Shown here: positions 5,312 through 53,216 of the stretch, in pieces | Layout of the letters: each line of letters starts with the position of its first letter | Numbering within the stretch: position 1 is the stretch's first letter | Assembly (NCBI GenBank): GCA_025352125.1 | Contig: JANXTZ010000044.1 | Location: forward strand, 148,345 to 212,344 | Length of the DNA stretch: 64,000 bases | From: Deinococcales bacterium | GTDB lineage: Bacteria; Deinococcota; Deinococci; Deinococcales; JAAFIG01 | Direction of reading: 5' to 3' | Notes under the pieces: generated by a model | What the model was told of the DNA's origin: nothing | The model's input: only the letters and a program-made list of their open reading frames with translations | The model's database searches: none | Program-made: the position numbers and the translations under genes

Positions 5312-6205
5312 ATGTCTTTGGCGGTGGAACTCGAGAATGCAAGTAAATCTTTTGGCAGTGTTCAGGCACTTCGTAACGTGTCGCTCGAAGTTGAGGCGGG
5401 TGAGGTGGTCGCGTTTCTGGGACCGAACGGCGCAGGCAAAACCACCGCCATCAGCATCATGCTTGGTCTGCGTTCACCGACTTCGGGTCATGCCAGAATT
5501 TTTGGGCAGAACCCCAGAGAACCCAAAAACCGTGCGCGTATTGGCGTGATGCTGCAAGAATCTGGCGTGCCAGGATTGCTGAAGGTGCGCGAGTTGATTC
5601 GGTTGTTCACCCAGTTTTACAATGCGCCCTTGCTGGTTTCCAAAGTGCTCGAGATGGCGAACTTGACCGAGAAAAAAGACGCGATAGCCTCCACGCTTTC
5701 GGGTGGTCAAAAGCAACGACTTTATTTTGCATTGGCAATTTGTGGCAACCCAGATGTTTTGTTTCTGGACGAACCCAGCGTGGCGCTCGATGTCGAATCG
5801 CGTCGCGCGTTCTGGCAAGAAATTTCTGGCTTTGCGAAAACTGGTAAAACTGTGATTCTGACCACGCATTATCTCGAGGAAGCCGACGCGCTGGCGAACC
5901 GAATCATTGTCATCAACAAAGGCGAGATCGTGGCGCAGGGCAGTCCCGCGCAAATCAAATCGCGGGTTGGTGGCAAGAACGTTTCGTTCAAACTCGAGGT
6001 TGGAAATGCGGATGCGCTCGAGAATTTACCGAATGTACAGCGTTTCAGTAAGACTGGTGAAAGCATCAATCTGTACACTTTAGAGCCTGAAAAAGTCTTG
6101 CAAGAAGTTTTTGCATCTGGTTTGCAAATTTCAAACCTCAGCGTTGCAGGTGCGGGACTCGAGGAAGCCTTCATGGAAATCACCGAACAGGGAGCAAAAC
6201 AATGA
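5312..6205 (+). CDS. ABC transporter ATP-binding protein (ABC-2/drug-exporter type)
   Basis: Walker A GPNGAGKTT, signature LSGGQKQR, Walker B LFLDEP. Confidence 0.9.
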   Translation: MSLAVELENASKSFGSVQALRNVSLEVEAGEVVAFLGPNGAGKTTAISIMLGLRSPTSGHARIFGQNPREPKNRARIGVMLQESGVPGLLKVRELIRLFTQFYNAPLLVSKVLEMANLTEKKDAIASTLSGGQKQRLYFALAICGNPDVLFLDEPSVALDVESRRAFWQEISGFAKTGKTVILTTHYLEEADALANRIIVINKGEIVAQGSPAQIKSRVGGKNVSFKLEVGNADALENLPNVQRFSKTGESINLYTLEPEKVLQEVFASGLQISNLSVAGAGLEEAFMEITEQGAKQ

Positions 6206-7005
6206 CTGGTCTGAATCCTGAAAATGCGAATGCTCGAGCCTACAATCCGTTCAAAGGTTTGGGCTTTCAGTTGTACTGCGAACTGATTCGTTTATTGCGC
6301 AACCCAGGTTTTTTGATTCCGACGGTTTTGTTTCCGATCATGTTTTTTACGCTGTTTGGTTTGCCCAACGCCAAAGAAAATATTGGCAATGGCGTGACGG
6401 TTGGCGCGTACCTGCTGGCATCGTATGGGACTTACGGGATGCTTTCGGCAGCCTTGTTTGGCTTTGGGGTTGGCATTGCCGCCGAGCGTGGTCTGGGTTG
6501 GAACCGTTTGACTCGGGCAACGCCGATGCACCCGATCATGTACTTCAGCGCCAAAATTTTGACCGCCCTGTTGTCTGGGCTGGTGACACTGACCGCATTG
6601 TTCGCCTTCGGAATTCTGGTTGGACACATTTCGCTCCCGCTCGAGACTTGGCTGTTGCTGACCGCCCGAATCATGCTCGGCATGATGCCGTTTGTGGCGC
6701 TTGGCTTGTTCATCGGTTATCTTGGCAATCCGCAAAGTGCCACGCCGATCACTCAACTTATTTTCTTGCCGATGTCGTTTGCTTCAGGCATTTTCTTGCC
6801 AATCAAAAATTTGCCGCAGTTTGTCCAAGACCTCGCGCCGTACCTGCCCGCGTATCACAGCGGTCAACTGGCATGGCATACTCTGGGTGCTGGCGACAGC
6901 GCTAGCCTCGACTCGCACATCATCTGGAATCTTGGCTTCACGGTGCTGTTCCTGGCATTGGCTGTCTGGGCATATAAACGCGACGAAGCCAAGCAATACG
7001 GTTAA
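6202..7005 (+). CDS. ABC-2 type transporter permease
   Basis: ATGA start/stop overlap with the ATPase gene. About six predicted TM helices. Confidence 0.8.
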   Translation: MTGLNPENANARAYNPFKGLGFQLYCELIRLLRNPGFLIPTVLFPIMFFTLFGLPNAKENIGNGVTVGAYLLASYGTYGMLSAALFGFGVGIAAERGLGWNRLTRATPMHPIMYFSAKILTALLSGLVTLTALFAFGILVGHISLPLETWLLLTARIMLGMMPFVALGLFIGYLGNPQSATPITQLIFLPMSFASGIFLPIKNLPQFVQDLAPYLPAYHSGQLAWHTLGAGDSASLDSHIIWNLGFTVLFLALAVWAYKRDEAKQYG

Positions 7006-8218: not shown

Positions 8219-8821
8219 TTGATTCGTGTGATCCTCGCCGAAGACCAAGCCCTGGTTCGCGGCGCACTTTCTGCACTGCTCGAGCTTGAGGACGACATTG
8301 AAGTGATCTTCCAAGCCCAGAACGGTCTTGAAGCGCTCGAACAAACCCAAAGACTTCAACCCGATGTGCTCCTGACCGATATTGAAATGCCCAAAATGAC
8401 GGGCTTGGAACTCGCGCTCGAGGTCAAAAAACAAAACCTCAAAACCAAAGTGGTGATCGTCACCACCTTCGCTCGAGCAGGGTACTTGCGGCGTGCACTC
8501 GAGGCTGGGGCGACAGGATACTTGTTAAAGGATGCACCCGCCGACGACCTTGCCGACGCCGTGCGCCGCGTTCATGCGGGCGCTCGAGCGATAGACCCGA
8601 CGCTGGCGCTTGAAGCCTGGAGCGAAGCCGACCCACTGACCGACCGTGAACGCCAGGTGCTGCGGTTTGCAAGTGAGGGTCAGAGCAGTCTCGAGATTGC
8701 TGGCAGCCTGAAACTTTCTGAAGGCACAATCCGAAATTATTTATCCGAAGCGATTGCCAAACTTGGTGCGAACAACCGCGTTGAAGCGGCGCGGATTGCC
8801 AGAGAAAAAGGTTGGTTGTAG
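8219..8821 (+). CDS. Response regulator, NarL/LuxR family
   Basis: REC domain (VILAEDQ...LLTDIEMPKMTG) plus LuxR HTH (LTDRERQVLRFASEGQSSLEIAGSLKLSEGTIRNYLSEA). Confidence 0.9.
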   Translation: MIRVILAEDQALVRGALSALLELEDDIEVIFQAQNGLEALEQTQRLQPDVLLTDIEMPKMTGLELALEVKKQNLKTKVVIVTTFARAGYLRRALEAGATGYLLKDAPADDLADAVRRVHAGARAIDPTLALEAWSEADPLTDRERQVLRFASEGQSSLEIAGSLKLSEGTIRNYLSEAIAKLGANNRVEAARIAREKGWL

Positions 8822-8875
8822 GGTGCGCCCCGTGCACTAAGGACGCGTGAATGACGGTGCACAAGGCGCATCCTA
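8819..8875. other. Nested hairpin immediately after the response-regulator stop codon
   Basis: Outer stem TAGGGTGCGCC / GGCGCATCCTA (11 bp, one G-T pair). Inner stem GTGCAC / GTGCAC. The 19-nt loop TAAGGACGCGTGAATGACG loosely resembles the loop of the 37-nt repeat family. Confidence 0.35.
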
Positions 8876-8950
8876 CACAATTGTTGTGGTTTCTCGAGAG
8901 GTGGTATTTCCTGATTGTGAAACTTGAATACCACCGAATACTTTTCCATT

Positions 8951-9142
8951 GCGCCTATAGCTCAATGGTTAGAGCACCAATCTTCTTGACCATAAAACGT
9001 ACCTGTCTTGATCTTGATCCCAAACATGCACCTGATGGGCGGGATCGCTGACGGGCAAGGTCGCTTGTTGACCATAAAACGCACCTGACGGGCATGGTCG
9101 CTTCTAAATTGGCGCATACGGGTTCGAGTCCCGTTAGGCACA
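8951..9142 (+). tRNA. tRNA-Arg(TCT) gene interrupted by a 119-nt insert in the anticodon loop (possible pseudogene or intron-bearing gene)
   Basis: Hand fold after removing 8984-9102. Acceptor GCGCCTA/TAGGCAC has one C2-A71 mismatch. D arm GCTC-AATGGTTA-GAGC. Anticodon stem CCAAT/ATTGG with loop CT|TCTAA. Variable loop CGCAT. T arm ACGGG-TTCGAGT-CCCGT. Discriminator A. No encoded CCA. Confidence 0.7.
8984..9102 (+). repeat. Three copies of a ~37-nt hairpin repeat, one nested inside another, forming the tRNA insert
   Basis: Copy a is 8984-9005 plus 9050-9065 and is split by copy b, 9012-9049 (stem GATCCC/GGGATC). Copy c is 9066-9102 (stem GACCAT/ATGGTC). The consensus is TCTTG-stem-AAAACGCACCTGACGGGC-stem-CGCT. 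Confidence 0.8.
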
Positions 9143-10552: not shown

Positions 10553-11485
10553 TTAATTGCTAAAATACGCTTGGTACACCGCCGCACCCACCGCGTTAAA
10601 ATCGCCCAGCAGTTGCTCGAGGCTTGGGTTTTCAAGGTCCAAAATCTGGTCAATCTGCGCGTACTCGAGTTTTGCGGCGAGCCAGCCGACTTCGCGCAGG
10701 GCGTCGCGCTTGCCGCTGCGGTTGGCTTGGGCAATCACTTCCAGAGCGGCGCATAATGTTTCGGCGCAGTACCTGACGCTGCGCGGAAAGTCGGGTTCGA
10801 GCAGCAAAAATTCGGCGATGCCGCGAGGCTCGAGGCGGGCTTTGCTTTTGCGGTACGCCTCGTAGGCGCTGGCGGTTTTTAAAACTGCCATCCAACGGTG
10901 ATTCTCCAGCGCTTCGGCGACGGCTTTTTCGCCCGTGTTTTTGTAGCGCACTTGCAAGAGTCGTAACAGTGCATCGCCGCGCTCGAGGTGCTGACCCGCC
11001 TGCAAGAATTGCCAGCCCTGATCGCGGGGCAGCGTGGCGAAGGCAATCCCGAAAAACAGATGGCTGGCGTCGCGCACGGTCACGCAGTATTGGTGCAACT
11101 CGTCGTTGGGCAGAACGTGTTCGGTGCCAAAGCAAAGTTTGTGGTAGGCGCTGTTGATGCACTCCCACATCTCGCTCGAGATGCGGTCACGTAATGCTCG
11201 GGCGTTCTCGCGGGCTTGGGCAATGCAACTGCGGATGCTCGAGGGATTGCTGGGGTCGAACGCCAACCAGTTTGGGACATTTCTGGAATCGGCGCGGTAG
11301 CCTTTGGCTTTGAATTCTTCTTGTGAACCCGTGATTGCCAGCAGGGGAGACCATTGCTGCGTGAACAGCCCTGCACCCTCGAGCGTGGCGTAATAGTTCA
11401 CGTCCAGTAAGCGCGCAATGTTTTCGGCGCGTTCAATGTACCGCGCAATCCAGAATAAATTTTCGGCAACCCGAGAGAGCATCAA
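10553..11485 (-). CDS. Alpha-E domain protein (DUF403)
   Basis: [28 protein letters not shown] is the signature N-terminus of the alpha-E family. It overlaps the upstream ATP-grasp gene by 4 nt. Confidence 0.85.
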
Positions 11486-12996
11486 TCATCACCGCCAGTG
11501 TTTTGCGATTGACTTTGAGATTGGGATTGACTTTGCCCCGACTGTGTTTCCTCGAGCACCCAGGTGTCTTTGCTGCCGCCGCCCTGACTGGAATTGACGA
11601 CCAGGCTGCCGCGCTTTAATGCCACGCGGGTTAAACCGCCTGGGACAATCGTGATTTTTTTGCCGACCAGAATGTAGGGGCGCAAATCCACGTGGCAGGG
11701 TTCAAACGTTCCAGTGTCGGGGTAGTACGTCGGGTGTCTCGAGAGAGCGATGGTGGGTTGTCCGATGTAATTGCGCGGATTGGCTTCAACTTTTTTCATG
11801 AACTCGGTAATTTCTTTTTTGTTGGATGCCGTGCCGACCAACATGCCGTAGCCCCCAGCCTCGCCGACGGCTTTGATCACCAGTTTTTCGGGGTTGGACA
11901 GCATTTCTGCCAAGCCCTCTTTGTCCCAACCCAGGAGCGTTGGGACGTTGGGCAGGATCGGGCGCTCGGACAGGTAATACTCGATCATTTTTGGCACGTA
12001 GGCGTAAATTGCCTTGTCGTCTGCCACGCCCGCACCTATCGCGTTTGCCAGCGCCACGCGACCACTGCGGTATGCCTCGAGCAAGCCTGGCACGCCGAGG
12101 CTCGAGTTGGGATTGAACGCCAGCGGGTCGAGGTAATCGTCATCGACGCGGCGGTAAATCACATCCACCTGCTCGCGCCCAGACGTGGTGCGCATCCAAA
12201 CTTTGCCCTCAGTGACAAACAAATCCCTGCCCTCGACCAATTCCACCCCCATTTGCTGCGCCAGAAAAGCGTGCTCGAAATAGGCGCTGTTGTACATGCC
12301 AGGGGTCAGCACGACAATGGTTGGCTCCTCGACATCTCTGGGCGCGAGCGAGCGCAGCACCTCGAGCAGCACGGTGGTGTAATGCTGGACTGGGCGCACA
12401 CCCTGGTCTTTGAACAGACTCGGCAGGGTGCGGGTCATGGCGACGCGGTTTGCCAGCAGGTAACTGACGCCCGACGGGGTGCGCAGATTGTCCTCGAGCA
12501 CCATGTACGTGCCGTGCTCGTCTCGAATCAAATCTGAACCGACGACGTGGGTGTACAAGCCGTGCGGCAGGTTGACGCCGTGAACCTCGCGGCAAAAATG
12601 GCTGGCTGAAAGCACCAATTCCCTGGGGACAACGCCGTCGTTCAAAATCTCGCCCTTGCCGTAAACATCGCGCAAAAAGGCGTTCAGTGCCAGCACCCGC
12701 TGGGTCAAACCTTTCTCGAGGTGCGCCCATTCTTGCGCGGGAATGATGCGCGGCACAGGGTCAAACGGAAAGGTGCGTTCTGTCCCCTCGGTATCGCCGT
12801 AAACGGTAAAGGTAATGCCTTGATTGCGGAAGCTCAAGTCAGACAGCGTTCTTCGTCGTTCAAATTCTTTGCGCCCCAAAGCTTCAAGTCGCTCGAGCAC
12901 TTGTGCATAATGTGCGCGTGGTGCACCGTTGTCCTCGAACATTTCATCGAAAAACCCGTTTGGTGCGTAACCGTTAAAAACGCCCTCGTTCCCCAT
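11482..12996 (-). CDS. Circularly permuted ATP-grasp type 2 protein (DUF404/DUF407)
   Basis: The length and conserved blocks ([41 protein letters not shown]) fit this family. The unusual C-terminal tail is [19 protein letters not shown]. Confidence 0.8.
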
Positions 12997-35341: not shown

Positions 35342-35461
35342 AACCCAATATCAACAAAAATTAATGTTCTTATCGTGAGATAGGCTCGAGAAGTGTTGAA
35401 GACTGACCATGCCCCAAGCATAAATCTTTGATGGTTTTCACATTCAGAATATACTTTTGGA

Positions 35462-42924: not shown

Positions 42925-43001
42925 GTATGAAAGCTCGAGGTTCAACTCGTTGAAATAGATGTACAAGGAACAGCAATTGCTCTGGCTACCCTCATCCCCA
43001 G

Positions 43002-43063
43002 CCCTTCTCCCGTCTTGACCATAAAACGCACCTGCGGGCATGGTCGCAACATCGGGAGAAGGG
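43002..43063. repeat. Composite hairpin: 11-bp perfect stem (CCCTTCTCCCG/CGGGAGAAGGG) whose loop carries one copy of the 37-nt repeat (43013-43049)
   Basis: Read directly. The inner sequence TCTTGACCATAAAACGCACCTGCGGGCATGGTCGC matches the tRNA-insert copies. Confidence 0.8.
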
Positions 43064-43130
43064 AGCTTTGATCTTTTATAAGTGTGACTCGAAGTATTTC
43101 CTTCTTCCAAATATTACGCCCTCACAAAAA

Positions 43131-50265: not shown

Positions 50266-50305
50266 GGGGTTCTCCTGGGTTTTGTGAAGCTCGAGGTTGA
50301 GTAGG

Positions 50306-50418
50306 AGGGTGCGCTTCTTCTTGGTCTCAAGACGCACCTCACGGACGAGACCACTTCGGGCATGGTCGCTCCACGCACCAATCGCACATGTTTGACGGGA
50401 CGGTGCGCACGGCGCACC
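50306..50418. repeat. Pile-up of 37-nt hairpin-repeat copies and fragments between the ADH and R2lox genes
   Basis: The full variant copy is ~50318-50354 (stem GGTCTC/GAGACC, loop AAGACGCACCTCACGGAC). A 3-prime fragment TCGGGCATGGTCGCT lies at 50355-50369. Further ACGCACC / GACGGGAC fragments follow, plus the hairpin GGTGCGC-acg-GCGCACC at 50402-50418. Confidence 0.65.
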
Positions 50419-51453
50419 TTACGGGATCAAGATGACTTTGCTGGCTTGGCGTTTGTCGAACAAGTCATAACCTTCCACGGCATCACTCAAACTTAACCTG
50501 TGTGAAATCACGATTGTTGGATCAATCTTGCCGCTCGAGATGAGTGCCAGAGTCTCGTCAATGTCACGGTGAATGTTCGCCAGTCCGATTCTGAAGGTCA
50601 CGTCTTTGGTCAGGCTTTGCATCAATGGATATTCAAACGTGGTTTCGCTCGAGACGCCAACCGCCGCAATTCGACCACCAGGGCGCACGAGTTCAAACGC
50701 GAGAATGATGGTTCGAGGACCACCAACCGCCTCGATCACGGCATCCACGCCCTCGCCGTCGGTCAATTGCATGACGCGCCCGACAGGGTCAGAGGTTGAA
50801 CCATTGACGGCAATCGCGCCTAAGCTTGCCGCCAGATTTAAGCGCTCCTCGAGCAGGTCAATTGCCAGGACTCGAGCCGCGCCACGGGCAAAAGCACTCT
50901 GAATTGCCATGATGCCGACTGGACCGCAACCGATCACGGCAACGGTTTCGCCGATCATGACGCCCGCATTTTTGACCGCACCGTAAGCGGTGGTCAGAAT
51001 GTCACCCGCGAACAGGGCTTGCTCATCCTCGAGCTGGGCGGGAATTAAACGCAGGTTGACATCTGCTTTTGGGACTCGGGCGTACTCGGCTTGCGTGCCG
51101 TTGAGACTGCCGTAAATGGGTCCGTACCCAAAAACCGCGCCGCTCGAGCACAAGTGAAATTCGCCTCTAAGACACGCGTTGCACCCGCCGCAGGCGGTGT
51201 GAAACGTGCCAACCACCCGATCACCGCGTTTTAATTTGACGCTCGAGCCGGTGTCTTCGATCACGCCCGTGAATTCATGACCGCAGGTGTCGCCTGGCAT
51301 CATGGGAATGTCACCGTGGTACAGGTGCAAATCCGAACCGCAAATCGCGCAGCGCGTCACGCGAACGATCACATCGGAATCCTCGAGAAGCTCGGGTTCG
51401 GCAACGTCGGAAACGGCAATGACACCCACATCTTGAAAGGTCACGGCTTTCAT
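50419..51453 (-). CDS. Zinc-dependent medium-chain alcohol dehydrogenase family protein
   Basis: Catalytic and structural Zn ligands (CAICGSDLH, GHEFTG, CGGCNACLRGEFHLC). Rossmann motif AVIGCGPVG. Confidence 0.9.
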   Translation of the reverse strand: MKAVTFQDVGVIAVSDVAEPELLEDSDVIVRVTRCAICGSDLHLYHGDIPMMPGDTCGHEFTGVIEDTGSSVKLKRGDRVVGTFHTACGGCNACLRGEFHLCSSGAVFGYGPIYGSLNGTQAEYARVPKADVNLRLIPAQLEDEQALFAGDILTTAYGAVKNAGVMIGETVAVIGCGPVGIMAIQSAFARGAARVLAIDLLEERLNLAASLGAIAVNGSTSDPVGRVMQLTDGEGVDAVIEAVGGPRTIILAFELVRPGGRIAAVGVSSETTFEYPLMQSLTKDVTFRIGLANIHRDIDETLALISSGKIDPTIVISHRLSLSDAVEGYDLFDKRQASKVILIP

Positions 51454-52224: not shown

Positions 52225-53216
52225 ACCCGTGCTCCCAGGGCGCTCGCCACCGCGTAATACAACGGAATGCCGAGCGAGAGGTTAAATGGAAACGTGACGC
52301 CCAAAGACATGCCCAGATAATACGCGGGATTGGCTTGCGGCAACGCCACCCGAATTGCGGCGGGTCCGGCAATATAGCTGGCGCTGCCAGCCATTGCGCC
52401 CAGAACGAACGAACCACCGACGCTTAAGCCTGCAAAATGTCCCAGCACCACGCCAACTGAACCATTGATGATCGGCATGACTATCGCAAAGGCGGTCAAG
52501 AAACCACCAACTTTCAGAAAATCGCGCAAGCGACTTGCCGCGACCATGCCCATCTCGAGCAAGAACAACGTTAACGCACCCTTGAACGGGTCCACAAAAA
52601 ACGGTTTGACTTGTTCCAGACCAGCTTTTCCACTGAGCCAACCGATCACCAAGCCGCCCAGCAGGACAAACAAGCTGCGTCCGGTGAACAACTCGCGCCA
52701 AACCTCACCCATGCCCGAGTGTGCAGATTGGCTCGAGTTTGGGTTCAGGCTCGCCCGTGCCAGAAGCAACGCCACGACAATCCCTGGAACCTCGAGTGCG
52801 GCGAGAAGAGCGGGCATGAAACCCTCGAGTTCGATGTTCTGGGCTTGGGCAAAACTGAGCGCCGCCGTGAACGTGACGGCGCTGACCGAGCCGTAATGCG
52901 CGGCTATTGCGGCGGCATCGACAATGCTCAAACGCCCAAGGCGCAACAAGATTTGATACGCCACCAAGGGAATGCTGACCCCCAGGATCAGTGTCGCCAG
53001 CAGTGGTTTCCAAAACACCGCAAAGGAGGTCACCGACAATTCGCCGCCACCTTTTAAACCGATGGCGAACAGCAAATAAATGCTCAAGACCGTGTACAAC
53101 TGCTCGGGAAGTTTCAAATCCGATTTGACCCAGACCGCCACCAAACCCAGCACAAATGCCAGCACCATCGGGGAGAGTAAGTTTAAGCGCAGCAATTCGA
53201 GTGCATCCATGCGCAA
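52221..53216 (-). CDS. SbtA-family (DUF897) sodium-dependent bicarbonate transporter-like permease
   Basis: ~10 TM helices. N-terminal LLSPMVLAFVLGLVA...SDLKLP..LY..LSIYLLFAIGLKGG is typical of the family. Confidence 0.7.
   Translation of the reverse strand: MRMDALELLRLNLLSPMVLAFVLGLVAVWVKSDLKLPEQLYTVLSIYLLFAIGLKGGGELSVTSFAVFWKPLLATLILGVSIPLVAYQILLRLGRLSIVDAAAIAAHYGSVSAVTFTAALSFAQAQNIELEGFMPALLAALEVPGIVVALLLARASLNPNSSQSAHSGMGEVWRELFTGRSLFVLLGGLVIGWLSGKAGLEQVKPFFVDPFKGALTLFLLEMGMVAASRLRDFLKVGGFLTAFAIVMPIINGSVGVVLGHFAGLSVGGSFVLGAMAGSASYIAGPAAIRVALPQANPAYYLGMSLGVTFPFNLSLGIPLYYAVASALGARV

Follow-up and report, generated by a model that had tools for sequence, protein, structure and literature searches.

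The locus described here raises a simple question: how did a tRNA gene come to hold 119 nucleotides (nt) of short, hairpin-forming repeats in the middle of its anticodon loop, and what are these repeats? The gene lies in a 64,000-nt stretch of a Deinococcales bacterium (GenBank assembly GCA_025352125.1, contig JANXTZ010000044.1, positions 148,345 to 212,344), hereafter the window, and its insert is built from copies of a 37-nt repeat. ARAGORN in its default mode finds no tRNA in the window; with introns allowed it reports tRNA-Arg(tct) i(33,119), a 119-nt insert after position 33, and the Rfam tRNA match to 8951-9142 has a 122-nt gap in the anticodon loop. Deletion of exactly 8984-9102 gives a standard 76-nt cloverleaf with the anticodon loop CT-TCT-AA. 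The gene is thus split between CT and TCT, and the two junctions, CT^TCTT and GCT^TCT (the caret marks the point of insertion), both fall inside the 7-nt loop. Public data contain more than 300 further copies of the repeat, almost all from 17 Deinococcales metagenome-assembled genome (MAG) assemblies and related metagenome contigs. Comparisons of empty and filled sites show that the repeat is inserted mobile DNA and that insertion is precise and leaves no target-site duplication. Taken as a whole, the data are probably best explained by a family of very small, non-autonomous mobile DNA hairpins in a Deinococcales clade, which an enzyme would recognise as folded single-stranded DNA.

The most direct evidence for mobility comes from five comparisons of empty and filled sites, all among paralogous insertion sequence (IS) genes in related loci (numbered L001 to L159), with the tRNA site as an additional case. 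Between two IS630-type genes (Pfam DDE_3; L068 and L100) the difference at cgtt^ccgcc amounts to exactly 37 nt, TCTT..GCT, and a second element at gtact^tgcc also distinguishes the pair. Three IS3-type orfA copies (Pfam HTH_Tnp_1 and rve) carry one element apiece at different positions and so provide empty sites for one another; two of these inserts read GTCTT..GCT (39 nt), at aaattct^ttgc and gaaattt^taaaag, and the third reads TTCTT..GC (37 nt), at cgtc^aggagcg. No target-site duplication is present in any of the five comparisons or at the tRNA site, which answers a point raised in an earlier note on this DNA. Such clean presence/absence polymorphisms, together with the lack of a GTAG motif, bear out that note's suggestion of a miniature element that is REP-like (repetitive extragenic palindromic) but of a different architecture.

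As read in the window, the 37-nt unit is TCTT-[6-bp stem]-AA..-GCACCT(G/C)ACGGGC-[stem']-GCT, and across the family the element measures 37-39 nt. The consensus first proposed, TCTTG-stem-CGCT, described a real unit in a register that was off by one base, the G belonging to the stem. A conserved 5' TCTT, which forms the foot in 146 of 150 copies, leads into a 6-bp basal stem that begins with G-C and is otherwise variable provided that pairing is kept. On the 5' side follows an A-rich bulge of 5-6 nt, and above it an invariant upper part, GC(A)CC/GGGC, is closed by the tetraloop T(G/C)AC; the 3' end is a conserved GC(T). Within this core a second short helix (G-C, C-G, a bulged A, C-G, C-G) can form under the tetraloop T-G/C-A-C, and the minimum-energy DNA fold of the consensus is exactly this two-part hairpin of basal stem and upper helix. 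The whole element is one hairpin, and its ends, TCTT and GCT, do not form inverted repeats.

With a search pattern that left the stem free apart from its closing G-C pair, more than 25 distinct stem sequences were found across the family, most of them pairing perfectly, and metagenome contigs supplied new pairing stems (GGCCCA/TGGGCC, GACCGT/ACGGTC and GGACA/TGTCC). In an alignment of 105 distinct copies, double changes affecting both sides occur in five of the six basal stem pairs and standard pairs fill 94.6% of the basal-stem cells. For the whole structure 96.7% of cells are paired, a share that falls to 31-48% once the 3' partner is displaced by 1-3 columns, and the observed covariation score was reached by none of 500 shuffles. 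The pattern that the earlier note had read from a handful of copies, a covarying stem with conserved loop and flanks, therefore extends to the family. The stem types found mostly in inner, nested positions are GACCAT, GATCCC, GATGCC and GGTTTC. Older-looking subfamilies, mostly outer hosts with imperfect stems, include TCTTGCTCAC/GCTCGT... and TCTTGCCCCTT... (L008, L013, L014, L030, L093, L099 and others), and another, GTCTTGGACAAAGCGGCACCTG..TCGGGCCTGTCCGC, occurs in metagenome contigs of higher GC content (L114-L159); this division of stem types between outer and inner positions suggests successive waves of activity.

Where the element inserts was analysed at 72 distinct sites that are neither nested nor tandem. 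The left flank ends in CT at 27 of them (5% background, p = 7e-17) and the right flank starts with TC at 23 (p = 3e-11); by share, CT^ makes up 37% of left flanks (50% with CTG^) and T^ 58%, and other flanks occur too. Target recognition is strand-specific, because the reverse-complement signal, AG on the right, is absent at the 72 sites. Orientation is fixed relative to an asymmetric target, with a preferred point after a T, most often CT^TC, a preference of which the earlier note made no mention. Sites that fit it include the tRNA (aatCT^TCTaaa), the tandem junctions (GCT^TCTT) and a recurrent CCCCAACCCT^TCTCCC. The proposal that every well-resolved copy lies in a hairpin loop holds in the window and only in part across the family: predicted hairpin loops, counted with stems of 4 bp or more, contain 24 of the 72 sites, compared with 117 of 720 random positions in the same loci, or 16% (odds ratio 2.6, p = 0.001). 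As targets, then, hairpin tips are favoured without being essential, and copies are also found at stem feet, in REP 3' arms and within the coding sequences of transposases.

No other hotspot comes near the tip of another copy (GCACCT^NAC), and insertion there gives rise to nested and tandem arrays. All but one of 42 nested copies sit directly after the GCACCT of the outer copy, which is within its apical tetraloop; they always share the orientation of the outer copy, and 14 of the 42 carry an extra 5' G. Arrays are head-to-tail or nested and run in one orientation, with units that abut or nest without spacers, and a CRISPR array was rejected on this ground. Other frequent hosts are loops and arms of GTAG REPs (GTAGGGGCGAGGC.., GTAGGGTGCGC..), a terminator-like hairpin family and IS transposase genes. 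Guide-like targeting, in which the variable stem and bulge would pair with the flanks, was also considered and rejected, as neither the complementarity nor the identity of each copy to its own flanks exceeded that in permuted pairings (positive z at most 1.5).

The terminator-like hosts form a second dispersed repeat, CCTCATCCCC(A/G)(A/G)CCC-TTCTCCC-loop-GGGAGAAGGGAG, with a conserved 5' leader. It is present at 42990-43066 in the window and in L016, L020, L034, L041, L044, L073, L081, L103-L105, L107 and others. One composite, a host of this second family that carries an outer GCCCCTT-type copy with an inner GGTTTC-type copy, is present on more than one contig of a single MAG, which suggests that a composite can be copied whole.

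The window contains four intact copies and one copy split by a nested copy (Table 1). A covariance model built from the 105 distinct copies (R1) gave no score above about 15 bits in the window beyond the four intact copies, and the 18-nt loop sequence has three matches there (at most 3 mismatches) against 0.16 expected. The places assigned in the earlier note were right, with small corrections: copy C spans 43013-43048, copy E spans 50319-50355, and an extra TCTTGA at 9006-9011 had gone unmentioned. That TCTTGA may be a junction that was made imprecisely or else what is left of a deleted copy. Self-nesting was also correctly recognised, with 9012-9049 lying within a copy split into 8984-9005 and 9050-9065, at the same point as in 41 of 42 nested cases elsewhere. 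Copy C is 36 nt long, its loop one base short (ACCTG-CGGGC) and its end GCA, and it occupies the loop of an 11-bp host hairpin (43002-43012 with 43053-43063) that belongs to the second dispersed repeat family in the form CCTCATCCCCRRCCC-TTCTCCC...GGGAGAAGGGAG; the DNA fold of 42990-43070, which covers copy and host, has an energy of -17.3 kcal/mol (z = -3.5). The copy E cluster sits between the arms of a GTAG-REP-like element (GTAGGAGGGTGCGC...CGCACC), whose inverted repeats, GGTGCG...CGCACC, were read by sequence and were not recovered by the minimum-energy fold. Both single copies, at 43013 and 50319, adjoin minus-strand genes. Two further places, 8832-8862 and 35405-35436, had been put forward as degenerate copies, and R1 detects neither as a copy. 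The former belongs to a GTAG REP-like doublet (GTAGGGTGCGCC...GGCGCATCCTAC); the latter has an R1 score below that for E=10 and could at most be a decayed relic on the minus strand (ACCAT..AAAGAT..GGGCATGGT). A 12-mer match at 52540-52551 on the minus strand lies inside an open reading frame (ORF) and was judged to be chance.

Table 1. Copies of the element, their hosts, and RAYT-like genes (positions are those of the window unless a locus is named)
Feature	Position	Strand	Description
Host tRNA gene	8951-9142	+	tRNA-Arg(TCT) without the insert; Rfam RF00005 45.7 bits, gathering score 29
Outer copy A, 5' half	8984-9005	+	TCTT GACCAT AAAAC GTACCTG; interrupted at loop tip by nested copy
Extra TCTTGA	9006-9011	+	6-nt direct repeat of the 5' end of nested copy D
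Nested copy D	9012-9049	+	Stem GATCCC/GGGATC, loop AAACAT GCACCTGATGGGC; R1 58.2 bits, E=2.5e-18
Outer copy A, 3' half	9050-9065	+	GACGGGC AAGGTC GCT; one stem mismatch
Copy B	9066-9102	+	Tandem with A; stem GACCAT/ATGGTC; 5' TGTT replaces TCTT; R1 57.3 bits
Copy C	43013-43048	+	Stem GACCAT/ATGGTC; R1 51.9 bits
Host hairpin of copy C	43002-43063	+	CCCTTCTCCCG...CGGGAGAAGGG; member of second dispersed repeat family
Copy E	50319-50355	+	Stem GGTCTC/GAGACC; diverged loop GCACCTCACGGAC; ends ACT; R1 37.4 bits, E=9e-11
3' remnant	50358-50370	+	GGGCATGGTCGCT; from GACCAT-type outer copy, 5' half deleted
RAYT-like gene	L007 3292-3790	-	Classical GTAG REPs at flanks
RAYT-like gene	L099 about 5850-6360	-	REP inserted inside ORF

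The history of the host tRNA can be followed in a syntenic relative, L111, whose gene order matches that of the window (ABC transporter, histidine kinase, response regulator, tRNA, VOC, transglutaminase) and whose VOC protein is 90% identical to the one in the window. An uninterrupted 76-nt tRNA occupies the corresponding place (L111 4872-4947). It is a tRNA-Ile(TAT) with a perfect acceptor stem and an encoded CCA; the window tRNA, by comparison, has a C2:A71 acceptor mismatch, TCA in place of CCA, and a compensated change at 6:67. The acceptor, D and T arms of the two are nearly identical, whereas the anticodon arm is wholly different yet well paired, a pattern suggestive of remoulding of the anticodon arm, or of gene conversion, in an accessory tRNA. 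The window tRNA is probably such a dispensable accessory tRNA, now inactivated. A search for the tRNA junction in the JGI metagenomes gave no matches.

How might so small an element move? We propose that a trans-acting enzyme with folded single-stranded DNA as its substrate would recognise the hairpin; of the possible types, a Y1/HUH nuclease-transferase of the IS200/IS605-RAYT kind (RAYT, REP-associated tyrosine transposase) is the likeliest. Such an enzyme would cleave on the 5' side of TCTT and on the 3' side of GCT, and would then join the unit, perhaps by way of a small circle, to DNA beside an exposed pyrimidine; exposed hairpin tips would for this reason be favoured as insertion points. 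Covariation of the stem would then be maintained by selection for recognisability to the enzyme and not for an RNA function; compensatory changes are just as much to be expected where a transposition enzyme has to recognise the hairpin. A Y1-type single-strand mechanism is tentatively the most likely one, by analogy, because the RAYT of Escherichia coli cuts DNA at a CT that adjoins a hairpin on either of its sides (PMC3479197), and because IS200/IS605 elements, which insert on the 3' side of a short target, cause no duplication. Cleavage at C^T on both ends, in the style of the E. coli enzyme, was rejected, since it predicts a 34-nt insert and junctions other than those of the IS630 site. A structure-guided mechanism of a new type, distinct from both RAYT and IS200/IS605, is a possibility that we regard as rather doubtful: the hairpin, possibly as a circle, would be pasted into the exposed tips of folded single strands, which would include its own tetraloop, the tRNA anticodon loop and REP loops. 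If this were true, the element would be the smallest defined mobile unit known in bacteria and would live as a parasite on other repeats, building nested hairpins.

Several observations weigh against a family of mobile hairpins moved in this manner. No protein family specific to the copies emerged from an all-against-all BLASTP comparison of 1,307 ORFs from the loci, in which the families that recur near copies are only common ones (ABC transporters, response regulators, dehydrogenases), and the window has no RAYT homologue, as the earlier note had stated. The two RAYT-like genes in about 1 Mb of loci are flanked or interrupted by classical GTAG REPs, and the element lies beside only one of them, in a REP loop (L007). 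The 5' junction shifts by one nt, with an extra G or T, which a simple model of cleavage at a fixed site fails to explain; this variation would be in keeping with a small circle as intermediate that is not always opened at quite the same point. Identical composites of host hairpin, outer copy and inner copy recur, which suggests that some spread occurs by duplication of larger units. Orientation is balanced with respect to local GC skew (41:36, skew over pieces of 4-14 kb being a weak proxy) and neighbouring sites agree in orientation only weakly (9:4); the lack of skew bias is mild evidence against a strictly fork-coupled version of the mechanism, such as the lagging-strand insertion of IS608. 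Finally, the hairpin is of ordinary stability (-5 kcal/mol as DNA, z = -1.4), and its upper helix is invariant, so that covariation neither supports nor contradicts this part. The evidence for the structure is evolutionary rather than thermodynamic. A search for an autonomous parent, in the form of element halves with matching stems 150-6000 bp apart, returned only pairs of separate intact copies.

Other explanations for the family need to be weighed against a mobile hairpin recognised as single-stranded DNA. That the element is simply another class of REP, moved by the RAYT genes of these genomes, seems improbable. It is a small, mostly extragenic, high-copy hairpin with a CT insertion preference that recalls the cutting of CT by E. 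coli RAYT on either side of a hairpin, and the clade has RAYT-like genes, one with a copy directly upstream. Both genes carry Pfam Y1_Tnp above threshold and score 76 and 70 bits with NCBIfam REP_Tyr_transpos, against a cut-off of 80. By definition, however, a REP has a conserved GTAG or GTGG within 0-2 nt of the hairpin foot on the 5' side (PMC6006769, PMC3479197), and the 5' foot of the element has neither, its TCTT being nearly constant. It is genuine GTAG REPs that flank the RAYT genes, and the copy beside the L007 gene is inserted in a REP loop; arrays are direct tandem and nested rather than inverted REPIN doublets; and the 37-nt insert of the IS630 empty site would not result if both ends were cut between C and T. 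Enzymes of the HUH type that act on hairpin DNA, for which the earlier note had suggested looking, therefore exist in the clade, and they are tied to GTAG REPs and not to the element. Still less can be said for an immobile family whose copies arose through local duplication, gene conversion or assembly artefacts at a few loci, to which we attach practically no weight. Tandem units of one array are usually identical and assemblies do break inside the repeat (L110), but this explanation is already contradicted by the diversity of flanks, of which more than 70 are distinct and unrelated, and by the empty/filled pairs, with exact presence/absence differences in unrelated genes; copies also come from 17 independent assemblies, one closed chromosome included.

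The remaining alternatives place the element at the level of RNA. That the family consists of structured RNAs (a small RNA, terminator or processing signal), with covariation arising from RNA function, was an alternative in the earlier note that the data disfavour and that we consider very unlikely. Compensatory variation in the stem is strong and copies are frequently downstream of genes, 20 sites lying between convergent gene ends and 6 between divergent starts, an excess that is also expected of tolerated insertions. The upstream gene and the element run in the same direction at 53 sites and in opposite directions at 36; in co-directional intergenic regions both orientations are about equally common (24 versus 20), and the element is antisense to both neighbouring genes at 20 sites. 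This independence of orientation from the genes, together with insertions in transposase ORFs and a tRNA, argues against a sense-RNA function. Rfam gives no match, the hairpin lacks a following T-tract, and nesting at a fixed point and clean indels typify insertion rather than a conserved gene. Extremely unlikely, in our view, is an RNA-level process in which the insert would be removed from the tRNA transcript, as a new bacterial tRNA intervening sequence, or in which copies would spread by entering exposed RNA loops and being reverse transcribed. No loop of a tRNA is more exposed than the anticodon loop, in which the insert lies in sense orientation; precise deletion of the insert restores the cloverleaf; and transcribed hairpins are typical hosts. 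Against this, a single tRNA is affected among about 200 sites, it has an acceptor mismatch and no encoded CCA, unlike its intact counterpart, copies within IS genes are not in obvious RNA loops, and 20 sites are antisense to both neighbours. The insert position (33/34) is unlike that of any known tRNA intron, and an archaeal or eukaryal-type intron (position 37/38, bulge-helix-bulge) was rejected because the insert follows position 33 inside the 7-nt loop. The 119-nt insert has no catalytic-RNA match: Rfam 15 models, including those for group I introns in tRNA, hit only the tRNA in the window and found nothing in the insert even at E <= 1.

Comparison with known systems shows an element that behaves in a REP-like or minimal IS200/IS605-like manner yet fails the defining tests of both. 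With the REP/REPIN-RAYT systems of Enterobacteria, Pseudomonas and others it shares short, imperfect, high-copy, mostly intergenic, non-autonomous hairpins, conservation of the hairpin rather than of an exact sequence, and CT at the point of cutting or insertion, and RAYT-like genes and true GTAG REPs coexist with it in the same genomes. Unlike those systems it has no GTAG guide, its apical half is invariant while the basal stem covaries freely, its arrays are direct or nested with no inverted doublets (REPIN/BIME), and, unlike in a REPtron, no cognate RAYT flanked by element copies was found in about 1 Mb of loci or in the window. Like IS200/IS605 elements such as IS608 and ISDra2, the latter from Deinococcus, it inserts strand-specifically and without duplicating the target, preferably just 3' of a short sequence similar to its own 3' end (..CT^), and hairpin recognition on single strands, as we infer it for the element, is a further likeness. 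It differs from them in its single hairpin, where they have distinct subterminal hairpins at the left and right ends, both accompanied by a guide tetranucleotide, in its total of 37 nt, in its loose target specificity and in the lack of a detected replication-strand bias, judged by the GC-skew proxy only. A classical MITE (miniature inverted-repeat transposable element) of DDE derivation was rejected, as the ends are not inverted repeats and no target-site duplication occurs.

Insertion in hairpin loops has other precedents. The loop region of REP hairpins is the target of IS1397, ISKpn1, IS621 and other IS110 family members (PMC1525189), and the element likewise inserts there; those insertion sequences are autonomous, 1-1.5 kb long and have their own transposase, in contrast to a 37-nt element that also targets itself. 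The same bacterial order includes Deinococcus radiodurans, whose small noncoding repeats (SNRs) are dispersed repeats of 60-215 bp with an unusual mosaic structure that are absent from D. geothermalis (Makarova et al. 1999; PMC1978522). In behaviour the closest precedent may be the small dispersed repeats (SDRs) of Nostoc. SDR4-6 of Nostoc and other cyanobacteria, which Elhai and colleagues are said to have described in 2008, are reportedly mobile hairpin-forming repeats of 21-27 nt that are inserted in one another and in other hairpins; to our knowledge they have no known transposase. They belong to another phylum, and at 37-39 nt our element is longer. Literature searches found no description of the element, and Rfam has no family for it.

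The distribution of the family is narrow. A scan of GTDB species representatives, with a pattern of fixed flanks and core and a free stem, matched at least 109 genome stretches. Among the matches listed, 17 MAG assemblies of Deinococcales or Deinococcaceae, with the closed 5.09-Mb chromosome OZ252252.1 as one of them, account for 107, and two are outliers (Lachnospiraceae and Cephaloticoccus) with non-pairing stems, in line with expected chance matches. Isolate names of the source MAGs point mostly to glacier-fed streams. A scan of metagenome contigs added 47 stretches, and searches of viral contigs and of plasmids gave no matches. R1 finds 185 matches in L001-L100 and 13 in L101-L112, so that the family does not consist of just a few copies, a possibility against which the earlier note had set its own reading; it finds no copy in the 30 kb (L111, L112) fetched for other purposes. 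By these scans the family is confined to a clade of uncultured Deinococcales.

We know of no solution, for most families of bacterial repeats below 40 nt, the cyanobacterial small dispersed repeats included, to the question of how they spread. The present family, which should be of solid interest to researchers of mobile DNA, offers defined ends, several clean empty/filled pairs and one dominant hotspot, its own hairpin tip, and dozens of compensatory stem variants show which parts must pair and which must keep their sequence. So well defined an anatomy makes the missing enzyme findable and in vitro tests with short oligonucleotides straightforward. The element can also hide or inactivate genes, as the tRNA missed by ARAGORN in default mode illustrates, and it breaks short-read assemblies of these genomes. 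In a contig from apparently the same strain (L110 1-31, Logan SRR23617199) the short-read assembly stops inside copy B, and on this evidence the repeat fragments assemblies of the lineage.

Classical GTAG REPs, GTAGGGTGCGC..GCGCACC, and a second type, GTAGGGGCGAGGC..GCCTCGCCCCTAC, partly in inverted doublets, occur in many loci and in the window at 8818-8878, 50290-50312 with 50371-50380, and 50395-50430. The element is a marker of a Deinococcales clade that is uncultured, lives in cold habitats and also stands out for an extreme excess of CTCGAG. This hexamer occurs 436 times in the window, or 6.8 per kb, where about 16 occurrences are expected and the next palindromic hexamer has 48; the excess extends to all related loci, where the density is 6.2 per kb and some metagenome contigs reach about 10 per kb, and is absent from the two non-Deinococcales chance matches. 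A literature search found no description of it. By analogy, CTCGAG looks like a highly iterated palindrome comparable to HIP1, the hyper-abundant short palindrome of the cyanobacterial genomes that host SDRs. An ATP-grasp-type ORF in the window (11482-12996, minus strand) terminates in a short repeat of 10 residues.

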